A stretch of DNA of 36,449 bases from a virus (Duplodnaviria > Caudoviricetes). The position numbers were made by a program, and so were the translations under genes. Positions 1,281 through 36,351 of this stretch are shown one piece after another (position 1 is the stretch's first letter; every line of letters begins with the position of its first letter). The notes under the pieces are model-generated. The model was not told the DNA's origin. It did not search any database and saw only the letters and a program-made list of their open reading frames with translations. The DNA is taken from the IMG/VR virus record IMGVR_UViG_3300047457_000647, positions 1 through 36,449 of that record; one strand, given 5' to 3'.

Positions 1281-1513
1281 TGGCACGCAAGCGAGGGCCG
1301 AACCTCTCGGTCGGCAGGGGCGAGAAACTCCCGGTGTCAAAGGGCGCTGGCCTGACCGCCAAGGGCAGGGCGAAGTACAACCGCCAGACGGGGAGCAACC
1401 TTCAGGCGCCGACCAAGGACAAGGACAATCCACGCCACAAGTCCTTTTGCGCCCGCAGCAGGTCGTGGAAGGGCGAGCGCGGCAAGGCCGCACGCGCACG
1501 GTGGGGGTGCTGA
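1280..1513 (+). CDS. Small basic protein (DUF6321-like, 77 aa)
   Basis: TGATG coupling; GLTAKGRAKYNRQTGSNL..RHKSFCAR..ARWGC. Confidence 0.8.
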   Translation: MARKRGPNLSVGRGEKLPVSKGAGLTAKGRAKYNRQTGSNLQAPTKDKDNPRHKSFCARSRSWKGERGKAARARWGC

Positions 1514-1514
1514 C

Positions 1515-1646
1515 ATGGCGAAGAACTCCCTCGTCGGCAACATCAACAAGCGTCGCAAACTCGGGATCTCGCGCCCCAAGTCTGCCAAGTCCGTCAGCGC
1601 GAAGTCGTATGCCGCAATGAAGCGCGGCTGGAAGAAAGGCAAGTGA
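1515..1646 (+). CDS. Small Lys/Arg-rich protein (43 aa)
   Basis: MAKNSLVGNINKRRKLGISRPKSAKSVSAKSYAAMKRGWKKGK; starts 1 nt after the previous stop. Confidence 0.8.
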   Translation: MAKNSLVGNINKRRKLGISRPKSAKSVSAKSYAAMKRGWKKGK

Positions 1647-1756
1647 TGCCGAAGGTCGGAAAGAAGTCGTTCCCGTACACCGCGAAGGGCAAGATGGCCG
1701 CGAAGGCCTACGCCAAGAAGTCCGGCAAGAAGATGTCGAAGGGCAAGGGCTACTGA
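1646..1756 (+). CDS. Small Lys-rich protein (36 aa)
   Basis: MPKVGKKSFPYTAKGKMAAKAYAKKSGKKMSKGKGY; TGATG coupling at both ends. Confidence 0.8.
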   Translation: MPKVGKKSFPYTAKGKMAAKAYAKKSGKKMSKGKGY

Positions 1757-1890
1757 TGCCGTTCAAGTCCAAGGCGCAGCAGGGCTTCATGTTCGCCAAG
1801 CACCCGCGGCTCGCGAAGGAGATGGCTTCCAAGACGAAGTCCATGAAGTCCCTCCCGGCCCGCGCCAAGAAGAAGAAGGGACGCAAGTGA
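1756..1890 (+). CDS. Small Lys-rich protein (44 aa)
   Basis: MPFKSKAQQGFMFAKHPRLAKEMASKTKSMKSLPARAKKKKGRK; TGATG coupling. Confidence 0.8.
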   Translation: MPFKSKAQQGFMFAKHPRLAKEMASKTKSMKSLPARAKKKKGRK

Positions 1891-2024
1891 TGGACAACCT
1901 CCAGATCGCCGCCATCGTCGGCCTCTCGTTCGTGACCGGTTTGCTCGTCGGGAACCTGAAGGACGCCGTGGCGTTCGTCAAGTCGTGGTTCCCGGCGAAG
2001 AAGAAGCGGAAGGGCGGCCGCTGA
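1890..2024 (+). CDS. Small single-TM protein with basic tail (44 aa)
   Basis: MDNLQIAAIVGLSFVTGLLVGNLKDAVAFVKSWFPAKKKRKGGR; TGATG coupling. Confidence 0.75.
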   Translation: MDNLQIAAIVGLSFVTGLLVGNLKDAVAFVKSWFPAKKKRKGGR

Positions 2025-17374: not shown

Positions 17375-20300
17375 ATGACGTCCTTCCAGCAGGCGCTCGA
17401 CTTCGTCGATCAGGCCGTGTCGGGTGGCGGTGGCGCGCAGCCTCCGCTGACGCTCGACGACGCTTTCAGTTTCGTGGATTCCGCGATTGCCGCGGAGATG
17501 CCGGGCGCGACGCCCGGGGCGCGGGACGAGGACATTCAGGCCATTGCCGCGCAGGAGTACGCCGGGATGGTGGATGTCGTGCCGGACATCGACGTCGGCA
17601 TCATGCCGCGGGAGGTTGCCCGCGGCGCGGTCGGCATGTTCACGCAGGCGGCGCAGGCCGTCGCGACCCCGGGCATGCGGGCGCAGTTCATCGAGAGCGT
17701 CCTGTCGCCGATGCTCATGTTCCAGATGCCGTTCATTGGTTCGGCCGCCCGTCGGCAGGTGGCGCGTGGTGCGGCCCGTACGGTGTCGCAGGCGCTTGAA
17801 CCTGCCGGGAGCGGCCTGTCGGTCGAGGACGTGGAGACGGAGGCAATGGCGATGCGTGGCGCGCAGGCCGGGCTTGCGGCCGGGCAGCGCGAGGGATTCC
17901 GGGCAGAGGCGAGCCGCGCAGTCGGTCAGGTGGTGCCGCAGGCCGCTGCCGTTGCCGGGGCCGTCCTGACTGGGCAGCCCGTCGTGGCGGCTGCGCTGGC
18001 GTCCAATGCCGTCATGCCCCTGATGGGCTTCACCAGCGGGCAGATTGCCTACATGGACGAACTTGACCAGAAGCGGGCCGACGAGGCCGCTGCTGGCAAG
18101 CCCCTGTCGGAATTCGACATTGGCGAGATGGGCCGTCGCGGGGCGATCACGGGGGCGATCGCGGCTGGCGTCGAGGCCGTGGGCGCCGCCACGGGCACGC
18201 GGCTCGTCGGCAAGGCGCTTGCCGCTGCCGCCAAGCCTGCGACCAAGAACGTCGCCATTGCCCGTCTTGCGCAGGCCGGGCAGGACAAGGCTGCCCGGGT
18301 GTTGGCGACCCGCGCCGGGCAGGCCGGGGCGCAGGCGTTTGCCCGAATCACCGCCGGGACCGGGCAGATCGCCAATGGGTTCATCGGTCAGGCCGGGAAG
18401 GCGCTTGCGCTTTCGGCCGCGGAGGAGGGCGTGGAGGAGTTTGCCGAGGGCATGCTGAATGCCCCGTTCACCTATGCCCCGATGTCGGAGGACTTGTGGA
18501 ACGCGGTCAGCGCGGCCGCGGTCGGGTCCGTTGCCGGAGGCGTCGGCGGCGGCATCGGCGTGACAGGGGCGGTGACGCAGCGGTCGCTCGCCAATCGGCG
18601 CGAAGCCATGCGTCCGGAGACCGACAAGGAGCGCATCCTGCGGCAGTCCCATGCCGAGGCGATCGCCAAGCGCGTGGACTGGACGAAGGATCTCGACGAC
18701 ACGCAGCGTGCGGAGATCGCCGTGGCGCTTGACACCCTGAACGGCATGGATCAGGAGGAGCGCGGGACGTTCCTTCAGGAGATGCGCGACAGGCAGGCCG
18801 ACGCGGTCAACTTCATCGACATGCTGCTTGCCGAGCGCAAGCAACTGGACGACGCGATCGCCGGTCTTGAGGTCAGCGAACGCCGGATGATCGAGGATCA
18901 GCCCCGCGTGGAGGGCGAGCGGGCGGCGAAGCAGGAGGCCGTCCGCGAGGCGGAGGCTGCGTTCACGCAGGCCGAGGCCGACCTTGCCGCCGCGCAGGAG
19001 ATTCTTGCCGAGGCAGAGGGCGCCGCCGGAGTGCGTCCCCGCGTTGCCCGTCCGGGCCGCAAGATCGTCACGCCCGAGGAGGCGCGCCGCAACGTCGAGT
19101 CCGCACAGGCGCTCGTCGAGGAACAGCGCAAGAACGTCACCGCCGCGCTGTCGCAAGTCGAGGCCGCGGAAGGGCTTGAGATCGACGAAGGCATCCGCAT
19201 CGACCCCGTTGCCATGCGGGCAGACCTGCTGTCGGACATCGCGAAGAACGATGCTGCGCTCAAGACTGCCGTGACCGACAAGTTGATCGCCGATGCCCGG
19301 GCCAATGCCGTCGCGGAGAAGATCAGCGACATGCCAGCGGTGGTCGAGCAGAAGGCGTCCGGCGACGTGCTGTCTGACCTCGGCACCTCGATGGGCCAGA
19401 CCTTCACGCAGGTCAAGGCTCCGCGCAAGGCGTCCAAGTTGACCAAGGATCTGGCCGCGCTCGGCGTGAACGTCGTGTGGTTCCGGTCGTCCGGCCGGTT
19501 CATCCCTGCGTTCCACAGCCGCAAGAGCCGCGGGACCATCTACCTCAACGCCGACATGGACCCGCGCACCGTGCGCGCCCGGGCGTTCGAGGAGATGTTC
19601 CATGACATCCAGATGTTCCAGCCGGACATCGCGGAGTCATACTCTGAACTCGTCGGACTCGCGCCGATCTACCGCGCAGGCATGGAATACGTGACCCGCG
19701 GCGGGCCGGAAAGCGAACAGATCGGTCGCCTCGACGTGGCTGCCGTGGAACAGTTGGGCGCGGCCGGTGCTGCCCTGCGTGGCGAGCGTGCTGCGATCCA
19801 GCCGGGCGTGGCACGGGCCGGTGCCGCCCGTCTCGCGCAGGAAGGCGAGGCCAATGCGTTTGCGGAGGCCGCCGCGGCCATGACCACCAACCGCGTGCTT
19901 GCCCCGATTTCGCGGTTTGCCGCCCGTCGCGGGCTGATGGGCCGGGAGGCCCGTGCGGCGATGGCCGTGATCGACGCCGCAGCCCGTTCCGCGGCGATCG
20001 CGAAGGTCAAGGGAACGCAAGGCGACGCGACGCTGTCGCCGCTTGCTCGCACGCTGATGTGGGCCGAGGATCTCAACGTCTCATATGCACGCGAGATCGA
20101 GGAAGCAACTCAACCGAAGCAGCCTGCCGCCGAAGCCGCGCAGACTCCTGCGGCTGGCGTGTCGATGGCCCGCGAATTTCCGTCGCGCCCGTTGTCGTCG
20201 TTCACGCCTGAATGGCGTGCGTGGTTCGGCGACAGCAAAGTGGTTGATGAGAACGGAAACCCGCGTGTCGTGTATCACGCAACTCGCGCAGCCAAGGACT

Positions 20301-23300
20301 TTGATGTATTCAAGATCACGAAAGATCTTGGATATCACTTTGGTTCTACTCCAGATGCGGCCAATCGGGCACTTGGCAGCAGAGTCGGTGGAGTGACGCA
20401 ATCCGGTGGGGCGCGTATTTACCCCGTGTACCTGTCCATCAAGAACCCGCTTCGTGTTTCAGAAACAGGAAGCGCGATGATGGGCGATCTTGGCGGATGG
20501 AATTTCGGTGATTTGGTCGGGCAGTTCTATCGCCCGGTCAAACTTCGTCAATCTAACTTGTTCCGATATGAGCCTGAAGCGAACGAGTTTGATGTTCCAG
20601 AGGGCATGTCAATTCCGGAGGCAATGCGAACAGGACAGGTCACGCGCACGGAACCGCGACCCGGTCTGATTGACATGACGCCCTTGGAGTATGTGCAGAA
20701 AATCAACGCCGAAGTTCGTGCTGAACTTGGTGAATTGACAAAGACGAACAGGGTGAAGTTCAACAGGGCGGCGTTGCAGAAGTTTGTTGCTGACCTGAAG
20801 CGACTTGGATATGACGGACTGGTGTACAAGAACATCGTCGAAGGAGGCGGTGACAGTTGGATTGCATTTGATTCCAACCAGATCAAGTCCGTATTCAACG
20901 AGCGCCCGACCGCCGCGCCCGGCATCTCGATGGCCCGCGAGGATTCCGCCGACATCGAGGCGATGCGCACCGAGATCGCCGCGCTTCAGCGCCAGATGCG
21001 CGATGTCCAGAACGTAACCGCCGCGCAGCGCGCACGGGCGATGCGCGAGGTCAACCTGCTCCAGCGCAGGCTCGTGACAGCGCAGTTGATCGCTGAACAG
21101 AAGATCGGTCAGGCCGAGCGGCTGCGCAAGCGCATGGAGCGCGAGCGCGAGGTGTCGGAGTCGTCGATCGCCGACGCACAGGAGGCCATCGGCCGCCTTG
21201 AGCGCGATCTCGACGAGGCGGAGGCGGCACTGCGGTCGGAACGCGAGAAGGCCAAGGCAGGCCCGGGATCCGCAGCGGCGATCCGTTCGGCGCAGCGGGC
21301 GATCGACTTCGCGTACCGCATCGGTCGCCGCGAGGGACTGGTCGCTGGCGAAGTGCGCGGACAGCAGGTCGGCCTGCGCGAGACGGCGGCCGCCGAGCGC
21401 CGTGTCGAGCGAGCCGAGCGCCGCGTCGTGACGTCCGCGGAGCGAATCGACGAACTTCTTGGCCGGATCGGCGAGGCGAAGTCGGAGATCAGCGACCTTC
21501 GCAGGAACATCCGTACCGACGCTGCGCTTGCGCAGCGTGCCGCAGACCTTGCCTACCGCATGGGACTTCGTTCCGGGCAGGTGCAGGGCATGATGCGCGG
21601 GCGGCAGCAGGTTCTCCGGGTGCTGCGGAAGCGCGAGGATGCGCTTGCGCGCCAGTTGGACAATCTACGCACACTGAACGCCCTGCGTTCGGATCAGGTC
21701 GCCGAGCGTGCTGCCATCGTCCGCAAGATCGCCGCAGACGCGGTTGACATGCTTCCGGTGCGCCTGCGCGGGCCGCTTGCCAAGCGAGCCGCGACCGCGA
21801 CCACCGTGCAGCAGGCCAACAGGATCGCCGTGGAGGCCACCAGAGAGGCGGTCAACAACGAGGTATCCACCGCCCTTGCCGTCATCAAGGCGACGCGCAA
21901 GAAGATGAACCGCCGCGGCATGCGTAACGTCACCCGTGAGCGCGTCGAAACCCTGCTGGATCAGGCCGATGCGATGCTCCGAGACACGGCCAACCGACGC
22001 CTTGCCGCGAAGGTGGTCAGCGGCCCGAAGGCAGGTCTTGGCCCGGGTGCGTCGGTCGTGACGAATGCCGTTTCGCTGTATTCGGCGGTTCTTGACGCCT
22101 CGCTGCTGGTCGAGCAGGCCGTGGCGGAGGTGCAGGCGGAGCGCGATGCGTGGGAGCGCGAGCGTGCAGCCCGCGTCGCCCGCTATGCGGACCTGAAGTC
22201 CCGGCTCGGGTCGAACCTCGCGATGCGTCCGACGCTTGAGGAACGTGCGCGTGCGGACGAGTCTCCGCGAATCGGCGCACTTGCGTCGATGCAGCGCGCA
22301 GCATCGGACATCTACACGCTGATGCTGGAAACGGAAGGCACGCAGGATGGCGCGCTCGGCGAACTGGTGTCGATCGCGCAGCGCGGCAAGGGCGAATCGT
22401 CTCTTGAGCATGCGCGCATGATCCGCGACCTCGCGCCAGCCCTGTCCGGCGCCGGTTACGAGAGCCTGTCTGACTATGCGCTCCGCAATGGCTTGATGGG
22501 CGAGAGCGCGGCCGAGACGATTGACGTGGTGCTTGGCGGCAGGACGCTGACGCTGCCGGTCGGCAAGGTCTTGTCCGTGGCTGCGATGGATGACGAGACG
22601 CTCGGGCTGATGGATGGCTCGCAGCCGATCACGTTCCGTGGGGCGGAGACCACGATGCGGGTCAGCCCGACCCGGCAGGAGATCGAGGCGATCCGGTCGT
22701 CGCTCACGCCCGGGCAGCGCGACCTGATCGACGCCATGAAGTCGATCCTCGAAACCCGCGTCCGCGACCGCGTCATGGACGCGATCTGGCGCGTGGAGGG
22801 CGACCAGCCGCCGATCGTGCGGAATTACTGGCCGCGCATCCGCAAGACAGACCTCGACGCGGAGACCGCGGACGTGCTTCGTTCGGCATCCGCCGCGGTA
22901 CGTTCGGCCCTCACGTCGGTCGGTTTCGCGCAGGCACGAACCGGCAGCAAGTCCCCGCTCGTGTACGACGACGCCTTCCGGACATGGGACCGCCACCTTC
23001 AGGTGTCGCTCGACATGATCCACATGGCGCAGCCGTACCGCGACGCCCTGTCTGTCTTGACGGATGGCGAGATCGAATCCGCGCTTGACAGGCGCATGGG
23101 CGACGGCACGGCGAACATCCTGCGCGCCTTCTTCGCCAACGGCGTCGGCGCGACGGCAAGAAGCAACGTCACGCTCATCGACGCGATCACGAACAACGTG
23201 ACGGGCGCGATCCTTTCGCTGTCGCCGCGCACGGCCGCGAAGGTATATGTCGGCGGCACCATCCGCCTCATGTCGGAGATGCCGTCCGGCCTCTGGGCGC

Positions 23301-24472
23301 GAGGCGTTGCCCGTGCAATTGCCCGTGCGGCAAATCCGCAGGCATGGAGCGCACGCATCGACGAGATCCATTCGGTGAACGGGTACTTCACCCGGCGACA
23401 CCAGATGCACATGCGGTCGATCGTGTCCGGCACGCTGTCGGACGCCGACCGCACGACCGTTTCGACGGCCTTGTCTGCAATGGCCGCGAGCCTGCGCGGT
23501 GCGGGGCAGAACGTGGCTGCCGGAAACTTCACCGACGCAGCCCGGGCGGTTCGCGAGGTCGCCAACGGCGCGAACATGGCCGTGACCGCCTTCGTGGACG
23601 CCCTGCGGTACGCCGACGAGCAGATCATGCTGGTCGCGGTGGAGTCTCGTCTCGCGGAGGTCGAGGACGAGGGAATCCTGACCGGCACGGAGGCGCTCCG
23701 CGAGGCGGCGCTGCGCGCCGAGCGCGATTTCCGGCTGACGCAGAACGCCAGCGACGAGTTCGACGAGACGGCGACGGTCGCCATGACCCGTACCGCCAAG
23801 GGGACGCCGTACATCCGGTTCCTGTTCCCGTTCTCCAGCGATCCGCTGAAGGCGCGCAACCAGATCAGGCGCGCATGGTTGACCGGGGAAGCCCGCGCAC
23901 GAACCGCGCTTGCCATCACCGGGAACACCGCCACCTCGACGCTCATCGGCGCGGCAAGCACCCCCGCGCTCATGGCGATGTATTACGCGGTTATGAATGC
24001 CATCGGCGGCGACGACGAGGAACGCAAGACGCTTCCTCCGGAGTTGCAGAAGGAGTTCGACGAGCAGGCCAAGCGTATTCCCGTGGCCGTGGCGAGGGAA
24101 ATCCTGTCGTCGGCGACCGGCTACCTCGGGATCATCGTCGGCTCGATCGTGGATTCGATCGTCAATCGACGTGCCGCGTTTGTCCCGCTCGCCGTCAGGC
24201 CCGTCGAGCAGACCGCACGCGAGGCAGGACGGATGTTCGGCGAGGAAGGCACGATGCTGCGCATCATCCCGGCGACGCTTGCCCTGTCGCAGTTGGCGGG
24301 TATGCCGTTCTACCAGTTGTACCGATTCGTCGAGGGCTTCGTGCCGCCGAGCACCGTCACCCCTGAAGAACGCCTTCGCAAGAAGGTCGAGCGTCGCACC
24401 AAGGCGCTCACGCCGGAGTCCGTGCAGGAGCGCGTGCGAAGGCGTGTCGAACAGTTGCGACGAGGCGGCTGA
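17375..24472 (+). CDS. Large polyvalent ejection protein with degenerate zincin and ART-PolyVal-like ADP-ribosyltransferase domain
   Basis: 2365 aa; Gly/Ala-rich hydrophobic N-region; TIYLNAD..AFEEMFH; WFGDSKVVDENGNPRVVYHAT..PVYLSIKNPL..GYDG..AFDSNQIKS; long coiled coils. Confidence 0.85.
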   Translation: MTSFQQALDFVDQAVSGGGGAQPPLTLDDAFSFVDSAIAAEMPGATPGARDEDIQAIAAQEYAGMVDVVPDIDVGIMPREVARGAVGMFTQAAQAVATPGMRAQFIESVLSPMLMFQMPFIGSAARRQVARGAARTVSQALEPAGSGLSVEDVETEAMAMRGAQAGLAAGQREGFRAEASRAVGQVVPQAAAVAGAVLTGQPVVAAALASNAVMPLMGFTSGQIAYMDELDQKRADEAAAGKPLSEFDIGEMGRRGAITGAIAAGVEAVGAATGTRLVGKALAAAAKPATKNVAIARLAQAGQDKAARVLATRAGQAGAQAFARITAGTGQIANGFIGQAGKALALSAAEEGVEEFAEGMLNAPFTYAPMSEDLWNAVSAAAVGSVAGGVGGGIGVTGAVTQRSLANRREAMRPETDKERILRQSHAEAIAKRVDWTKDLDDTQRAEIAVALDTLNGMDQEERGTFLQEMRDRQADAVNFIDMLLAERKQLDDAIAGLEVSERRMIEDQPRVEGERAAKQEAVREAEAAFTQAEADLAAAQEILAEAEGAAGVRPRVARPGRKIVTPEEARRNVESAQALVEEQRKNVTAALSQVEAAEGLEIDEGIRIDPVAMRADLLSDIAKNDAALKTAVTDKLIADARANAVAEKISDMPAVVEQKASGDVLSDLGTSMGQTFTQVKAPRKASKLTKDLAALGVNVVWFRSSGRFIPAFHSRKSRGTIYLNADMDPRTVRARAFEEMFHDIQMFQPDIAESYSELVGLAPIYRAGMEYVTRGGPESEQIGRLDVAAVEQLGAAGAALRGERAAIQPGVARAGAARLAQEGEANAFAEAAAAMTTNRVLAPISRFAARRGLMGREARAAMAVIDAAARSAAIAKVKGTQGDATLSPLARTLMWAEDLNVSYAREIEEATQPKQPAAEAAQTPAAGVSMAREFPSRPLSSFTPEWRAWFGDSKVVDENGNPRVVYHATRAAKDFDVFKITKDLGYHFGSTPDAANRALGSRVGGVTQSGGARIYPVYLSIKNPLRVSETGSAMMGDLGGWNFGDLVGQFYRPVKLRQSNLFRYEPEANEFDVPEGMSIPEAMRTGQVTRTEPRPGLIDMTPLEYVQKINAEVRAELGELTKTNRVKFNRAALQKFVADLKRLGYDGLVYKNIVEGGGDSWIAFDSNQIKSVFNERPTAAPGISMAREDSADIEAMRTEIAALQRQMRDVQNVTAAQRARAMREVNLLQRRLVTAQLIAEQKIGQAERLRKRMEREREVSESSIADAQEAIGRLERDLDEAEAALRSEREKAKAGPGSAAAIRSAQRAIDFAYRIGRREGLVAGEVRGQQVGLRETAAAERRVERAERRVVTSAERIDELLGRIGEAKSEISDLRRNIRTDAALAQRAADLAYRMGLRSGQVQGMMRGRQQVLRVLRKREDALARQLDNLRTLNALRSDQVAERAAIVRKIAADAVDMLPVRLRGPLAKRAATATTVQQANRIAVEATREAVNNEVSTALAVIKATRKKMNRRGMRNVTRERVETLLDQADAMLRDTANRRLAAKVVSGPKAGLGPGASVVTNAVSLYSAVLDASLLVEQAVAEVQAERDAWERERAARVARYADLKSRLGSNLAMRPTLEERARADESPRIGALASMQRAASDIYTLMLETEGTQDGALGELVSIAQRGKGESSLEHARMIRDLAPALSGAGYESLSDYALRNGLMGESAAETIDVVLGGRTLTLPVGKVLSVAAMDDETLGLMDGSQPITFRGAETTMRVSPTRQEIEAIRSSLTPGQRDLIDAMKSILETRVRDRVMDAIWRVEGDQPPIVRNYWPRIRKTDLDAETADVLRSASAAVRSALTSVGFAQARTGSKSPLVYDDAFRTWDRHLQVSLDMIHMAQPYRDALSVLTDGEIESALDRRMGDGTANILRAFFANGVGATARSNVTLIDAITNNVTGAILSLSPRTAAKVYVGGTIRLMSEMPSGLWARGVARAIARAANPQAWSARIDEIHSVNGYFTRRHQMHMRSIVSGTLSDADRTTVSTALSAMAASLRGAGQNVAAGNFTDAARAVREVANGANMAVTAFVDALRYADEQIMLVAVESRLAEVEDEGILTGTEALREAALRAERDFRLTQNASDEFDETATVAMTRTAKGTPYIRFLFPFSSDPLKARNQIRRAWLTGEARARTALAITGNTATSTLIGAASTPALMAMYYAVMNAIGGDDEERKTLPPELQKEFDEQAKRIPVAVAREILSSATGYLGIIVGSIVDSIVNRRAAFVPLAVRPVEQTAREAGRMFGEEGTMLRIIPATLALSQLAGMPFYQLYRFVEGFVPPSTVTPEERLRKKVERRTKALTPESVQERVRRRVEQLRRGG
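20162..20940 (+). repeat. 14-bp direct repeat TCGATGGCCCGCGA (20162-20175 and 20927-20940) flanking the ART domain
   Basis: Exact copies 765 nt (255 codons) apart, both encoding SMARE. Confidence 0.9.
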
Positions 24473-24474
24473 CC

Positions 24475-24902
24475 GTCCGAGCCGCCGCTTCGCTGCGCGT
24501 CGCCCGTGGCTCCGCTACGCGGCGGCTGTCGCGTCAGGCGATGTTCGACGCGCACACATCAGCCAGATGGGCGGAGTCTAAAGTCCTGTCACGCCGTGGG
24601 TTGCGTGCGATCATGGCTTTCAGCCCGTCCGGTGAGTGAAGGAACACCATGACCCCACGAGGAGGTCACGGAAATCAGCCCGACCGGAGCCGTGCGAGGT
24701 TTCCCTTGCCCACAAGTTGCACCATTTCGCTGCGTGGTCAGCAGCCGCTTCGCTGTGGGACGAGCGCACCCGAAGGTGGCGCACGGTAGAGTCATCTCCG
24801 TGCGTCTTGATACCACTTTGCCCCTACCGCGGCGGGCAACACTTCCGACAGCCTTGACCCGCAGGCCAAATCGCACTAGGCTGCAAGTGCGCTTCTTGTC
24901 CA
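24475..24902 (-). ncRNA. Candidate ~430-nt structured RNA / RNA-primed replication origin
   Basis: No credible ORF; downstream of a leftward promoter; serial hairpins including cUUCGg (24767-24778), CGCACGG/CCGTGCG (24780-24804) and AGCCGCCGC/GCGGCGGCT (24480-24527). Confidence 0.55.
24854..24882 (+). promoter_or_regulatory. sigma70-type promoter (rightward)
   Basis: TTGACC-N17-TAGGCT. Confidence 0.55.
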
Positions 24903-24908
24903 CCACGC

Positions 24909-24937
24909 ATCGTACAGGGTCCATCCACTCGATGCAA
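24909..24937 (-). promoter_or_regulatory. sigma70-type promoter (leftward)
   Basis: TTGCAT-N17-TACGAT on the minus strand. Confidence 0.6.
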
Positions 24938-24944
24938 GCGCGAA

Positions 24945-24994
24945 ATCGGAATCGGGGAGGGGCGGCGACATCCCCGCCCCTCCCTGAAACCGAT
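24945..24994. other. Strong GC hairpin
   Basis: GGGAGGGGCGG (24955-24965) / CCGCCCCTCCC (24974-24984) with outer ATCGG/CCGAT. Confidence 0.75.
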
Positions 24995-25164
24995 CCCACG
25001 GTAGCATCCGGCCGCCCGGCGTGGCTTCTCTGACGAGGCACCGCGGCAAGTGCCGTGGTGTGCGGCCCGACCGGGCATGAATTTCCCAGAGTTGCAGTTC
25101 CCCGGCGGTTTCTCGCCGCGGGGGACTGTTCTCTTTGGCGGCCGACCTGTCTACTTTGGGCGGC

Positions 25165-26061
25165 ATGAAACTGCCGTGGTCGGTCACTGCACCTGCCCGC
25201 AACATCCACATCGTCGATCTGGTAGCAAAGAGTGCTACCGATCATTGGTGGTTTCTGCTTTCCGGAGATCGTCACCACGATAACCCCCACGCTGACCATG
25301 AGTTAGAGAAGAAGCATCTCGACGAGGTGGTCAAGCGCAAGGCCGGGTGGATCGACGTCGGGGATCTCTTTTGTGCGATGGAGGGAAGGGCGGATCCACG
25401 GCGGAGCCGCAAGGGCGTCCGCGAGGAACACGCGATGGCGCCCGACTACTTCGACTCCATCGTCAATGCCGCTGCGGAGTTCTACAAGCCATACGCGCAG
25501 CACTGCGTCGTGATCGGGAGGGGGAATCACGAAGCCTCGGTGCTGAAGAACAACGAGACGGATCTGACCGAACGTCTCTGCGAGCGCATGAGCATGATGT
25601 CGAAGTGCAAGGTGTATCCCGGCGGATACGGCGGGTGGATCAAGTTCCGCACCGACCGTGGCGGCCATCGTTATGCGCTGAATCTCAAGTACTTCCACGG
25701 GTCCGGCGGTGCCGCGCTGATGTCGTTCGACACCCTGAAGGTGCGCCGTCAGGCCGCCGTCATGCCGGATGCCGACGTGATCGTGCAGGGACATGTGCAC
25801 AAGCAGTGGGTGATGCCGCTCGCACGCGAACGCCTGATCTCCGACAAGGCGGGAATGCGCATCCGCCACGACGTGCAGTACCACGTCCGGGTCGGCACCT
25901 ACAAGGACGAGTTTCAGGACGGCTACGGCGGTTTCCACGTCGAGCAGGGCCGGACGCCCGAGATCATCGGGGCGGTCTGGATGAAACTCTCGCTGCACCA
26001 CGAGATCGTGAACGGTGAGACCAGATACAGCCTCCGCCCAGAGTTCTTCCCGATCCACTGA
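25165..26061 (+). CDS. Calcineurin-like metallophosphoesterase
   Basis: DRH, GDLF, GNHE, FHG and GHVH motifs in canonical order. Confidence 0.88.
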   Translation: MKLPWSVTAPARNIHIVDLVAKSATDHWWFLLSGDRHHDNPHADHELEKKHLDEVVKRKAGWIDVGDLFCAMEGRADPRRSRKGVREEHAMAPDYFDSIVNAAAEFYKPYAQHCVVIGRGNHEASVLKNNETDLTERLCERMSMMSKCKVYPGGYGGWIKFRTDRGGHRYALNLKYFHGSGGAALMSFDTLKVRRQAAVMPDADVIVQGHVHKQWVMPLARERLISDKAGMRIRHDVQYHVRVGTYKDEFQDGYGGFHVEQGRTPEIIGAVWMKLSLHHEIVNGETRYSLRPEFFPIH

Positions 26062-31923: not shown

Positions 31924-32054
31924 AACGGCCCTGTCCCGGCGATAGGTTTCCGGATTACCCCAACGGGTGCGCTTGCCACGGTCGTTCCTTGCGGCCTTCT
32001 GCGTGGCACCGTGCGGGATTGGCTCACCCGCATCATCGCGCTTGCATGATACCC

Positions 32055-32087
32055 AAAAAGCACCACACCCCCGGCCGAAGCCGGGGG
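32055..32087 (-). terminator. Intrinsic terminator of the leftward early region
   Basis: Minus strand CCCCCGGC-TTCG-GCCGGGGG then TGTGGTGCTTTTT; at the convergence of the two arms. Confidence 0.65.
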
Positions 32088-32124
32088 CGCGGGGGAGAAC
32101 GCCGACCAAGGCGTTGGTTCGATG

Positions 32125-32454
32125 CTACCAAATGCGCCCGATGCCATGCCGGGGACGGCAATCGCAGGGCGGAGGTGGCGGCGGAGGCGGGGCGGACACC
32201 GGGACATAGACCACCCGTGGCTCCGGCATGGCGACGGGTGCGCCGGGCGGCGGCAGCACGAGGCCGGGCTGCACGATGGGGTTCCACGGCGGGTTTACGC
32301 CCGGGAAGTATTCCCACCCGCTCCCGACCCACATCGTGTCATGCACTTGCCATGCGCTTCCGCCGGACCAAATGGTCAGGCCGGGCGACGGAGACCACAT
32401 GACATCGGCATGGGCGGAGGCGCAAATCAGGGCGGACAGGGCGATGGTTCTCAT
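32125..32454 (-). CDS. Secreted Trp/Pro-rich protein
   Basis: Signal-peptide-like MRTIALSALICASAHA-D; poly-Pro tract. Confidence 0.65.
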   Translation of the reverse strand: MRTIALSALICASAHADVMWSPSPGLTIWSGGSAWQVHDTMWVGSGWEYFPGVNPPWNPIVQPGLVLPPPGAPVAMPEPRVVYVPVSAPPPPPPPPCDCRPRHGIGRIW

Positions 32455-35748: not shown

Positions 35749-36351
35749 TCAGGGCATCGCCGCCCGGATGACGGACGCGGCATCGTTCAGGCGTTCGGTC
35801 GCGTTGCCCGCATGGACGGACGCGGCGTAGCGGTGACTGCACGGCATGATGAGTCCGACCGCGCCGGTGCCGCCCGGCTTCTCCGCGTAGGGCATCACGA
35901 CGATCGGCTTATCGCTGTCGGCATGGATGAGGAGCGTCACCACGCCATCGGTGGACCCAAGCGCATCGGCAAGGCGCGCGAGCATCTCCGCGTTCAGGTG
36001 CACGGCGGTACGGTGATTCATCGGCGGGGCCATCACGTCGTGCACGGGCGGGAACTTCGCATCGGGTACGGCGTTCGCGTCCAAATCGATCACCGCCGGG
36101 AACGCCTTGCGGGCGGACGGACGGGCGGACTTCACGACGGCGGCGGGCAGGACCGTGCGCCCGGACGCGCCCGGGGCATGGGTCGGCACGACGGCGAGCA
36201 TCTTGCCGTCCGTGGCAGCGAGGACGGCCCCGTCCCCCGCCGCGTAGACCGCGACGGTATCGGGGGCGCAGAATCCGGACGCGCTTGGACGCGCGGCGGC
36301 GGCGTGGATGGCGGTCGGGACTTGGACGGTGGCGGTAGCGGTCGCGGGCAT
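35749..36351 (-). CDS. Truncated DNA polymerase III beta-clamp-like protein
   Basis: LAATDGKML, KFPPVHDVM, HLNAEMLARLADAL, KPIVV and GLIMPC resemble DnaN signatures (ATDGHRL, FPxY, FNxxYL, LIMPxR). Confidence 0.7.
   Translation of the reverse strand: MPATATATVQVPTAIHAAAARPSASGFCAPDTVAVYAAGDGAVLAATDGKMLAVVPTHAPGASGRTVLPAAVVKSARPSARKAFPAVIDLDANAVPDAKFPPVHDVMAPPMNHRTAVHLNAEMLARLADALGSTDGVVTLLIHADSDKPIVVMPYAEKPGGTGAVGLIMPCSHRYAASVHAGNATERLNDAASVIRAAMP

Follow-up and report, generated by a model that had tools for sequence, protein, structure and literature searches.

Background

Origins of replication initiated by RNA have been described, in the literature that we compared, for the plasmid ColE1, for the MRB replicons and for mycobacteriophage prophages. 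As described in the cited sections, the rG stretch of ColE1 RNA II pairs with a dC stretch of the template, giving rise to a persistent hybrid, and the plasmid can also replicate without RNase H, transcription or the R-loop then opening the duplex without priming (PMC4412123). How the transcript starts this persistent hybrid is still termed speculative in the part of a second account drawn on here (PMC5043065). The MRB (pB1067) replicons of Vibrionaceae plasmids form a second family that is convergent with ColE1, and the cited part of that work reports a 68-nt RNA I wholly complementary to a 465-nt RNA II, a conserved RNA I core of about 110 bp, and an RNA II that spans RNA I and whose promoter is unrecognisable (PMC3035462).

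As a category, RNA origins in tailed phages have a precedent. According to the cited portion of the mycobacteriophage study, the extrachromosomal prophages of cluster A have either a non-coding RNA region or a RepA-like gene, and the RNA-based origins lie beside parABS, serve the prophage only and are dispensable for lytic growth (PMC7157519). In addition, three structured motifs of 223–349 nt, ARRPOF, GEBRO and PAGEV, have been tied to plasmid replication, and ARRPOF, as presented in the excerpts used here, contains four pseudoknots and occurs in a region that replicates without rep (PMC5737381, PMC12990946).

Results

The window and its gene-free gap

The window, i.e. the whole stretch of DNA that was analysed, is a linear virus record of 36,449 nt that is 89% complete. 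A scan of its 50 ORFs revealed terminase, portal, capsid and tail genes together with a 2365-aa ART-PolyVal protein, whose homologues span about 2200 to 3700 aa, and an ExoVIII-ERF-RusA-HNH operon. A row of five tiny, very basic ORFs (37–59 aa; 1334–2024, plus strand) precedes the portal gene, and some of them are kept in relatives. A sequence-only reading of this DNA had pointed to a single large gene-free stretch, and this stretch (24473–25164, 692 nt) is indeed the largest gap of the window (Table 1). The next gap (31924–32453) separates convergent operons and contains a hairpin as well as a possible 109-aa proline-rich ORF on the minus strand; short matches to it were seen in two other records (G005 and G045).

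The same reading had stated that polymerase, helicase, primase and initiator genes are absent, which agrees with our finding of no matches among the 50 ORFs, nor when the record was scanned for such families in all six frames. ParA/ParB and integrase likewise gave no matches among the window ORFs. All that was seen was a weak sliding-clamp-like match (E 1.8e-5) in a 200-aa protein encoded at 35749–36351 (minus strand), which is present in initiator-bearing relatives too.

Table 1. Positions of the features discussed in the text, in window coordinates
Feature	Position	Strand	Basis and remarks
Left flank	17375..24472	+	2365-aa protein, ART-PolyVal domain, probable ejection protein; same flank in initiator-bearing L008, L010, L011
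Pas-like hairpin, repeated GC-N-N-AGC words	24480..24527	-	Inverted repeat I4; strand bias; alternation with loader-like gene
Second downstream box	24566..24605	-	In 16/70 distinct tails, none with loader-gene promoter; possibly single-strand initiation signal
Conserved structured element, most likely RNA (RNA II-like)	24620..24902	-	About 285 nt, 13 helices in model; alignment, pair counts, G-U excess, no conserved ORF
Direct repeat r2, candidate hybrid-nucleation site near origin	24620..24632	-	55 nt downstream of r1
Most conserved core (covariance model R1)	24671..24812	-	Hairpin whose loop hardly varies, GNRA/UUCG hairpin, nested stems, unpaired words that are invariant
Direct repeat r1, candidate guide loop	24675..24687	-	Repeat search, MI scan, identity co-variation
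5' pseudoknot	24848..24889	-	Loop 24884-24878 pairs with 24854-24848 across hairpin 24889-24874
Predicted antisense promoter	24854..24882	+	-35 24854-24859, 17 nt, -10 24877-24882; within sense element
Predicted antisense RNA (RNA I-like)	24889..24988	+	About 95 nt, two or three stem-loops, variable loops; terminal GC hairpin 24955-24984
Predicted sense promoter	24909..24937	-	-35 24937-24932, 17 nt, -10 24914-24909; +1 near 24902
Right flank	25165..26061	+	Metallophosphoesterase-like gene, first of ExoVIII-ERF-RusA operon

Conservation and structure of the element

It is highly probable that the gap holds a real structured element and, as judged from the alignment, the conserved element is most likely RNA. 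The conserved stretch begins with the promoter (24937) and reaches to 24620, beyond which the tails are variable; the non-coding RNA of about 430 nt that had been proposed thus shrinks to a conserved part of about 285 nt (24902–24620), the last 140 nt belonging to the variable tail. Among loci fetched via the right-flank gene, the gap was 69–80% conserved in several relatives and the core was found at a different position in two others. A pattern scan gave 87 true matches out of 103 in the viral set, falling into 28 clusters with the window included, and further true matches in 16 of 120 metagenome loci and two of 18 genome loci. The remaining pattern matches (16 viral, 104 metagenome and 16 genome) were discarded as chance.

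For the structure alignment we used 34 sequences (64% identity). The resulting model has 13 helices with 64 pairs, and 96.1% of the cells are paired. Covariation had been named as a check by the sequence-only reading and was found: double changes occurred in 36 of the 64 pairs, compared with 18.7 ± 2.4 in shuffled and 11–19 in slid controls, the model being derived from the same 34 sequences on which the pairs were counted. In an unbiased mutual information (MI) scan the top eight pairs were all Watson-Crick helix pairs. With regard to the type of nucleic acid, G-U cells outnumbered A-C cells by 157 to 15, and where the window has the cUUCGg loop, a GNRA loop was present in 25 of the 26 homologues whose loop was scored as four bases long. 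The G-U excess and the GNRA/UUCG interchange fix the minus strand and favour RNA. The run of hairpins pointed out earlier stood in part, as the cUUCGg hairpin at 24778–24767 is real, but the folding energy of the named 428 nt gave no signal against shuffles (z −0.05; other strand −1.00), so hairpins alone are no evidence.

Three pseudoknots were modelled. In the 5' pseudoknot, five of seven pairs showed double changes and pair 79:120 ranked second by MI; its inverted repeat also flanks the antisense promoter, which makes a reading at the DNA level possible. The other two (helices 8 and 11) are nearly invariant and are modelled only. Moreover, in at least 88% of the sequences an invariant loop word (24790–24793) could form pairs with the G-rich arm, likewise invariant, of the last hairpin (24651–24656), a possible switch. 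In one record (L007:2320-2580) the middle part of the element has been replaced, only the 3' domain and one hairpin matching.

Protein coding was rejected as an explanation, the overlapping ORFs being unconserved and the alignment rich in indels. An Rfam scan over 4227 families gave no match at E values up to 1, RNase P, tmRNA and ribozyme families being among those without a match; ARRPOF, GEBRO and PAGEV are presumably included in Rfam 15. ARAGORN found no tRNA or tmRNA in the gap, and blastn found no similar sequence among 72,556 plasmids or among 50,697 phage records. The literature search yielded no description of the element; published catalogues of candidate phage RNAs lay outside this search and may list it without a function.

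Predicted sense promoter and convergent antisense unit

A leftward promoter, TTGCAT-N17-TACGAT (24937–24909, minus strand), had been proposed from the letters alone, and it is well supported by the homologues, 25 of 37 of which carry TT....-16/18-TA...T at this place (background 2.9%). A predicted convergent promoter, which had gone unnoticed, is present inside the element in 34 of the 37 homologues at a nearly fixed distance (chance 2.9%). At 76–96 nt past the predicted antisense start, 24 of the 37 homologues contain a hairpin followed by a U-tract; the antisense GC hairpin of the window is without a U-tract. If the predicted sense start is right, the two predicted RNAs overlap by only about 14 nt. 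By analogy with the MRB replicons, the sense start could possibly lie further out; a search for a sense promoter beyond the antisense terminator found none.

A direct repeat that co-varies by identity

The direct repeats r1 and r2, a pair that had also escaped notice, are spaced 51–61 nt apart across homologues, and the conserved sequence stops sharply past r2. The two repeats vary in concert, keeping their identity: the same base was seen at 266 of 380 positions, compared with 200 ± 6. Counted over the 20 distinct r1 words, one of which is probably a false anchor, 129 of 180 positions were identical (65.9 ± 7.2 when shuffled; 0 of 20000 shuffles), and at the four variable bases the figure was 62 of 80 against 30.9. 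A repeat pair of this type also occurs in 15 of 21 loci with two unrelated non-coding cassettes (see below) and in none of seven initiator slots.

We found no specific pairing partner of r1 within the RNA. Pairing of r1 with the tail was rejected as the cause of the repeat, since it is feasible in many copies but unspecific (own −16.3, other −15.8 ± 0.3). Co-variation by identity is what pairing between an RNA loop and the template strand further downstream would require, and we infer that the r1 loop would invade its own template at r2.

The variable tail and a loader-like gene

Motifs resembling a primosome assembly site (pas) had been noted in the distal part of the gap. In 70 tails the GC-N-N-AGC words were found 183 times on the sense and 18 times on the antisense strand, compared with 14 upstream, and 34 of the 70 tails had at least three. 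Such words, which were picked after inspecting the tails, or a G-run hairpin were present in one of 13 tails followed by a loader-like gene, whereas they were present in 18 of 25 tails without this gene (p 3.6e-4); the other seven of these 25 tails were without such words. Hence the motifs proved to be strand-biased and to alternate with the loader-like gene, but the words are common in the GC-rich window (GAAGCGG, 13 + 6 occurrences) and a profile of four tails misses the ColE1 pas. The identification of the tail as a pas is a lead only. A third type of tail, seen in five loci (L029, L249, L270, L321 and L369), has a G-run hairpin and then an A-run, reminiscent by eye of the G-run/A-run end of ColE1 RNA II.

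The loader-like gene encodes 150 aa and follows 41 of 83 tails, and it is absent from the window and from seven others of the 13 fetched element genomes. The protein is weakly G39P-like (ESM 0.95 with 11% of members); its best named Foldseek match had an E value of 0.22, and no match was obtained in Pfam or PHROGs or under E 0.001 in Foldseek. It may be a G39P-like loader or the split-off C-terminal half of an initiator. The copy at L241:14973-15422 and those in relatives are leaderless and preceded by a promoter of their own.

Exchange of the element with predicted initiator genes

Three relatives (L008, L010 and L011) have a DUF1376 gene on the minus strand in the same slot between the same flanks. 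The PHROGs label of this gene is primosomal protein, and DUF1376/YdaU proteins are, as we take it, lambda-O-like initiators; on these grounds the gene is predicted to be a replication initiator.

To compare the two states we used 50 records, 27 chosen through the element and 23 through other genes (a capsid-based sample consisted mostly of short fragments and contributed one new long record). Short initiator ORFs were missed by gene calling, and claims of absence rest on six-frame family scans. The covariance model matched 35 of the 50 records, with one copy per genome. None of the 35 contained DUF1376, HTH_36 over cut-off, DnaB, AAA_25 over cut-off or PolA (for DUF1376, as judged by tblastn and Pfam in the window itself and by family scan in the other 34), and none of the 30 near-complete ones contained IstB/DnaC, DnaB_2 or Prim-Pol; these absences cover the families tested, and initiators of other families would escape. 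Matches to AAA_25 in six element-bearing records were dismissed as weak and under cut-off, the 454–463-aa frames matching terminase by size and place. An objection is that a Rep gene might lie in the rest of the incomplete record; it is answered by the seven of the 35 that are complete with terminal repeats and have no detected initiator.

Of the 15 records without the element, 11 had an initiator-like, helicase or polymerase gene: DUF1376 (six), HTH_36 (two), DnaB (one) or PolA plus primase (two). HTH_36 is a broad family, and one of the HTH_36 records (G015) has iteron-like repeats within the gene. The rest comprised two records with other non-coding cassettes (G011 and G016) and two fragments that lack the slot (G007 and G013). 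Within the 23 records not chosen via the element, such a gene was found in none of eight with the element and in 11 of 15 without it (Fisher p 0.0013; as the genomes are related, Fisher values here overstate independence). Both states occur inside two different virion gene sets, and the virion proteins of the window are nearest to those of an initiator-bearing phage (80.3%). The element itself accompanies three or more distinct virion gene sets and does not always occupy one position, several being known.

A second sample was taken through the loader-like gene (80 loci, six dropped for too little upstream DNA). In the 74 loci kept, the slot upstream of this gene was occupied by the element in 46, by DUF1376 in seven and by two other non-coding cassettes in 21, and near-identical loader proteins were found with all three cassette types. 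On the loader-gene tree the label changes four times, of which well-supported branches force only one. The two other cassettes (L479:150-850 and L481:600-1300; also in G011 and G016) gave no match to the model but resemble the element in the arrangement of the 3' part, including a direct repeat spaced by 52–54 nt; a strict scan found no antisense promoter in them.

The gene downstream of the element has its own promoter or is convergent, and therefore the element is not a leader. GC and TA skew at four-fold sites were inconsistent as origin markers, and the GC skew did not follow the direction of the element (six positive and six negative of 12). From the pattern of exchange the element probably has a role in starting replication.

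Copies outside the phages

A divergent copy on a Planctomycetota chromosome (L304) is flanked by an HTH_17 gene on one side and a tyrosine integrase on the other. It is part of a 4.2-kb element (L304:1649-5922) that is bounded by 61-nt tRNA-Leu repeats and contains the HTH gene, the element, the integrase and two paralogous cargo ORFs, with no Rep, and which is a candidate minimal satellite; genes for PriA and RNase H are present in the same genome. Another divergent copy, on a long scaffold (L379), comes after an SSB-like gene (SSB assigned by eye). A host housekeeping RNA was rejected: only two of 151 genomes in the class of G050 match, G050 itself within an integrated element and one weakly inside a coding gene. 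That the host of the window belongs to the Planctomycetota, as L304 and L306 might suggest, is a weak guess.

Proposed mechanism and alternative explanations

We favour, with a probability of roughly 60%, the reading that the element is a protein-free origin whose transcript stays paired with the template, primes or opens replication with host enzymes and is checked by an antisense RNA; the single steps are less certain than the whole. Host RNA polymerase would transcribe leftward from about 24902, where the promoter is conserved, and the RNA would fold into some 13 helices with at least one pseudoknot, in agreement with the covariation. The r1 loop would then pair with the template strand of r2 and nucleate a persistent RNA-DNA hybrid, as the identity co-variation suggests. 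By analogy with ColE1, trimming by RNase H and extension by Pol I, or the R-loop alone, could expose the RNA-sense strand, onto which the helicase may be loaded by host PriA at the pas-like tail (in the window) or by the phage loader-like protein in relatives without such a tail, assignments consistent with the observed alternation. An antisense RNA of about 95 nt from the convergent promoter, whose promoter and terminator are conserved, might limit initiation or set incompatibility. The ColE1-like RNA-primed origin put forward in the sequence-only reading is thereby kept as a layout, that of an RNA origin without Rep, which is backed by the initiator swap, the antisense unit, the co-varying repeat and the strand-biased tail; homology to ColE1 was not found, and the length is about 285 nt and not 430–550.

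An unlikely variant is an origin without RNA priming. Here the part of transcription or the R-loop would end with the opening of the duplex; the helicase would be loaded by PriA or by the loader-like protein of the phage, and both strands would be primed by host primase. The exclusion and slot data fit this equally well, ColE1 itself can work in this way without RNase H according to the cited section (PMC4412123), and the loader-like gene behind 41 of 83 tails is in line with it. Nothing here separates it from priming; the abrupt end of conservation past r2 would suit a nearby RNA-DNA junction. It is similarly improbable that the element is a regulatory or immunity RNA (an antisense switch or superinfection exclusion) in an exchangeable slot, replication being carried out by recombination (ExoVIII, ERF, RusA) or by an undetected initiator. 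In favour of such an RNA are the variable loops of the antisense unit, the occurrence in near-identical phages of three cassettes that differ in the manner of immunity types, and the position of the L304 copy between an HTH gene and an integrase, as well as the presence of ERF in all 13 fetched element-bearing genomes. However, initiator-bearing relatives have the same recombination genes, the lack of co-occurrence with initiators (0/35) would be unexplained, the arrangement of the downstream gene leaves no leader, and no Rfam family matched, C4 included if it is among the families scanned.

That the structure acts as folded single-stranded DNA, as a single-strand origin or primosome scaffold, is very unlikely. 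Plasmid motifs of the ARRPOF kind may act as ssDNA, as stated in the cited excerpt (PMC5737381), and the promoter-like words embedded in hairpins and the pas-like tail would suit such a role, but the 157 G-U cells, the interchange of GNRA and UUCG loops, the covarying pseudoknot and the conserved sense promoter directly upstream argue for RNA, and these dsDNA phages have no Rep nickase. An inserted RNA of a selfish or catalytic kind, unrelated to replication, would be compatible with the spread over at least three virion gene sets and several positions, and invariant single-stranded words are typical of catalytic cores. Against it stand the single copy per genome, the strict exclusion with initiators and the lack of a linked reverse transcriptase, nuclease or recombinase, so we give this explanation hardly any weight.

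Comparison with known systems

Many small uncultured phages have no visible replication genes, and for one large group of them the element offers a testable answer and a model for annotation. Moreover, the naturally variable r1/r2 pair opens the start of a persistent hybrid to direct testing by compensatory swaps, and the cassette might be developed into small replicons that are compatible with one another, for a host group in which genetic tools are scarce.

As far as the cited descriptions go, the element resembles the MRB replicons in the lack of Rep and in having a predicted short antisense RNA of two stem-loops with a well-conserved promoter and terminator, together with a longer partner RNA (PMC3035462), but no sequence similar to it occurs among the 72,556 plasmids. 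It shares with the mycobacteriophages, in the portion of that account considered, the setting in tailed phages and an RNA region that alternates with an initiator-type gene; the window, however, has no par genes, integrase match or other replication gene, and no similar DNA was found in the 50,697 phage records. The phage case in the cited text is unneeded for lytic growth, whereas here the element would be the only origin. With regard to structure, ARRPOF is, judging from the sections available, the nearest analogue, but ARRPOF, GEBRO and PAGEV belong to other hosts and element types, and the element gave no Rfam match at E up to 1. Tentatively, the element may represent a new, independently evolved class of protein-free cassettes, in which a re-programmable guide loop (r1) invades r2, with at least three interchangeable types that swap freely with DUF1376/HTH initiators and provide a broad group of tailed phages, as well as the 4.2-kb integrative element, with their only origin, which for the phages would then be the lytic one too.

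The element differs from ColE1 in several respects. A search with the ColE1 record gave no nhmmer match at E 10 and a best blastn match of 12 nt (E 0.39) in a stretch that is variable among homologues. The distance from the predicted +1 to r2 is about 285 nt compared with a pre-primer of about 550 nt in the cited text on ColE1, and the element is pseudoknotted and found in tailed phages and an integrative element. The predicted antisense overlap of only about 14 nt sets it apart from both ColE1 and MRB as they are described in the cited parts, and the variable r1/r2, which include no invariant pair of G runs, are an analogue of rG/dC and not a match. Common to the element and the ColE1/pMB1 plasmids are, according to the passages cited, the lack of an initiator protein and a long, structured element in the sense direction, within which a convergent promoter (predicted here) would drive a short antisense RNA (PMC5043065, PMC4412123, PMC4555960), as well as an RNA sequence repeated near the 3' end and a candidate helicase-loading signal downstream on the RNA-sense strand. 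Although not detectably related to ColE1, the element is thus ColE1-like in layout and, by inference from this analogy, probably also in function.
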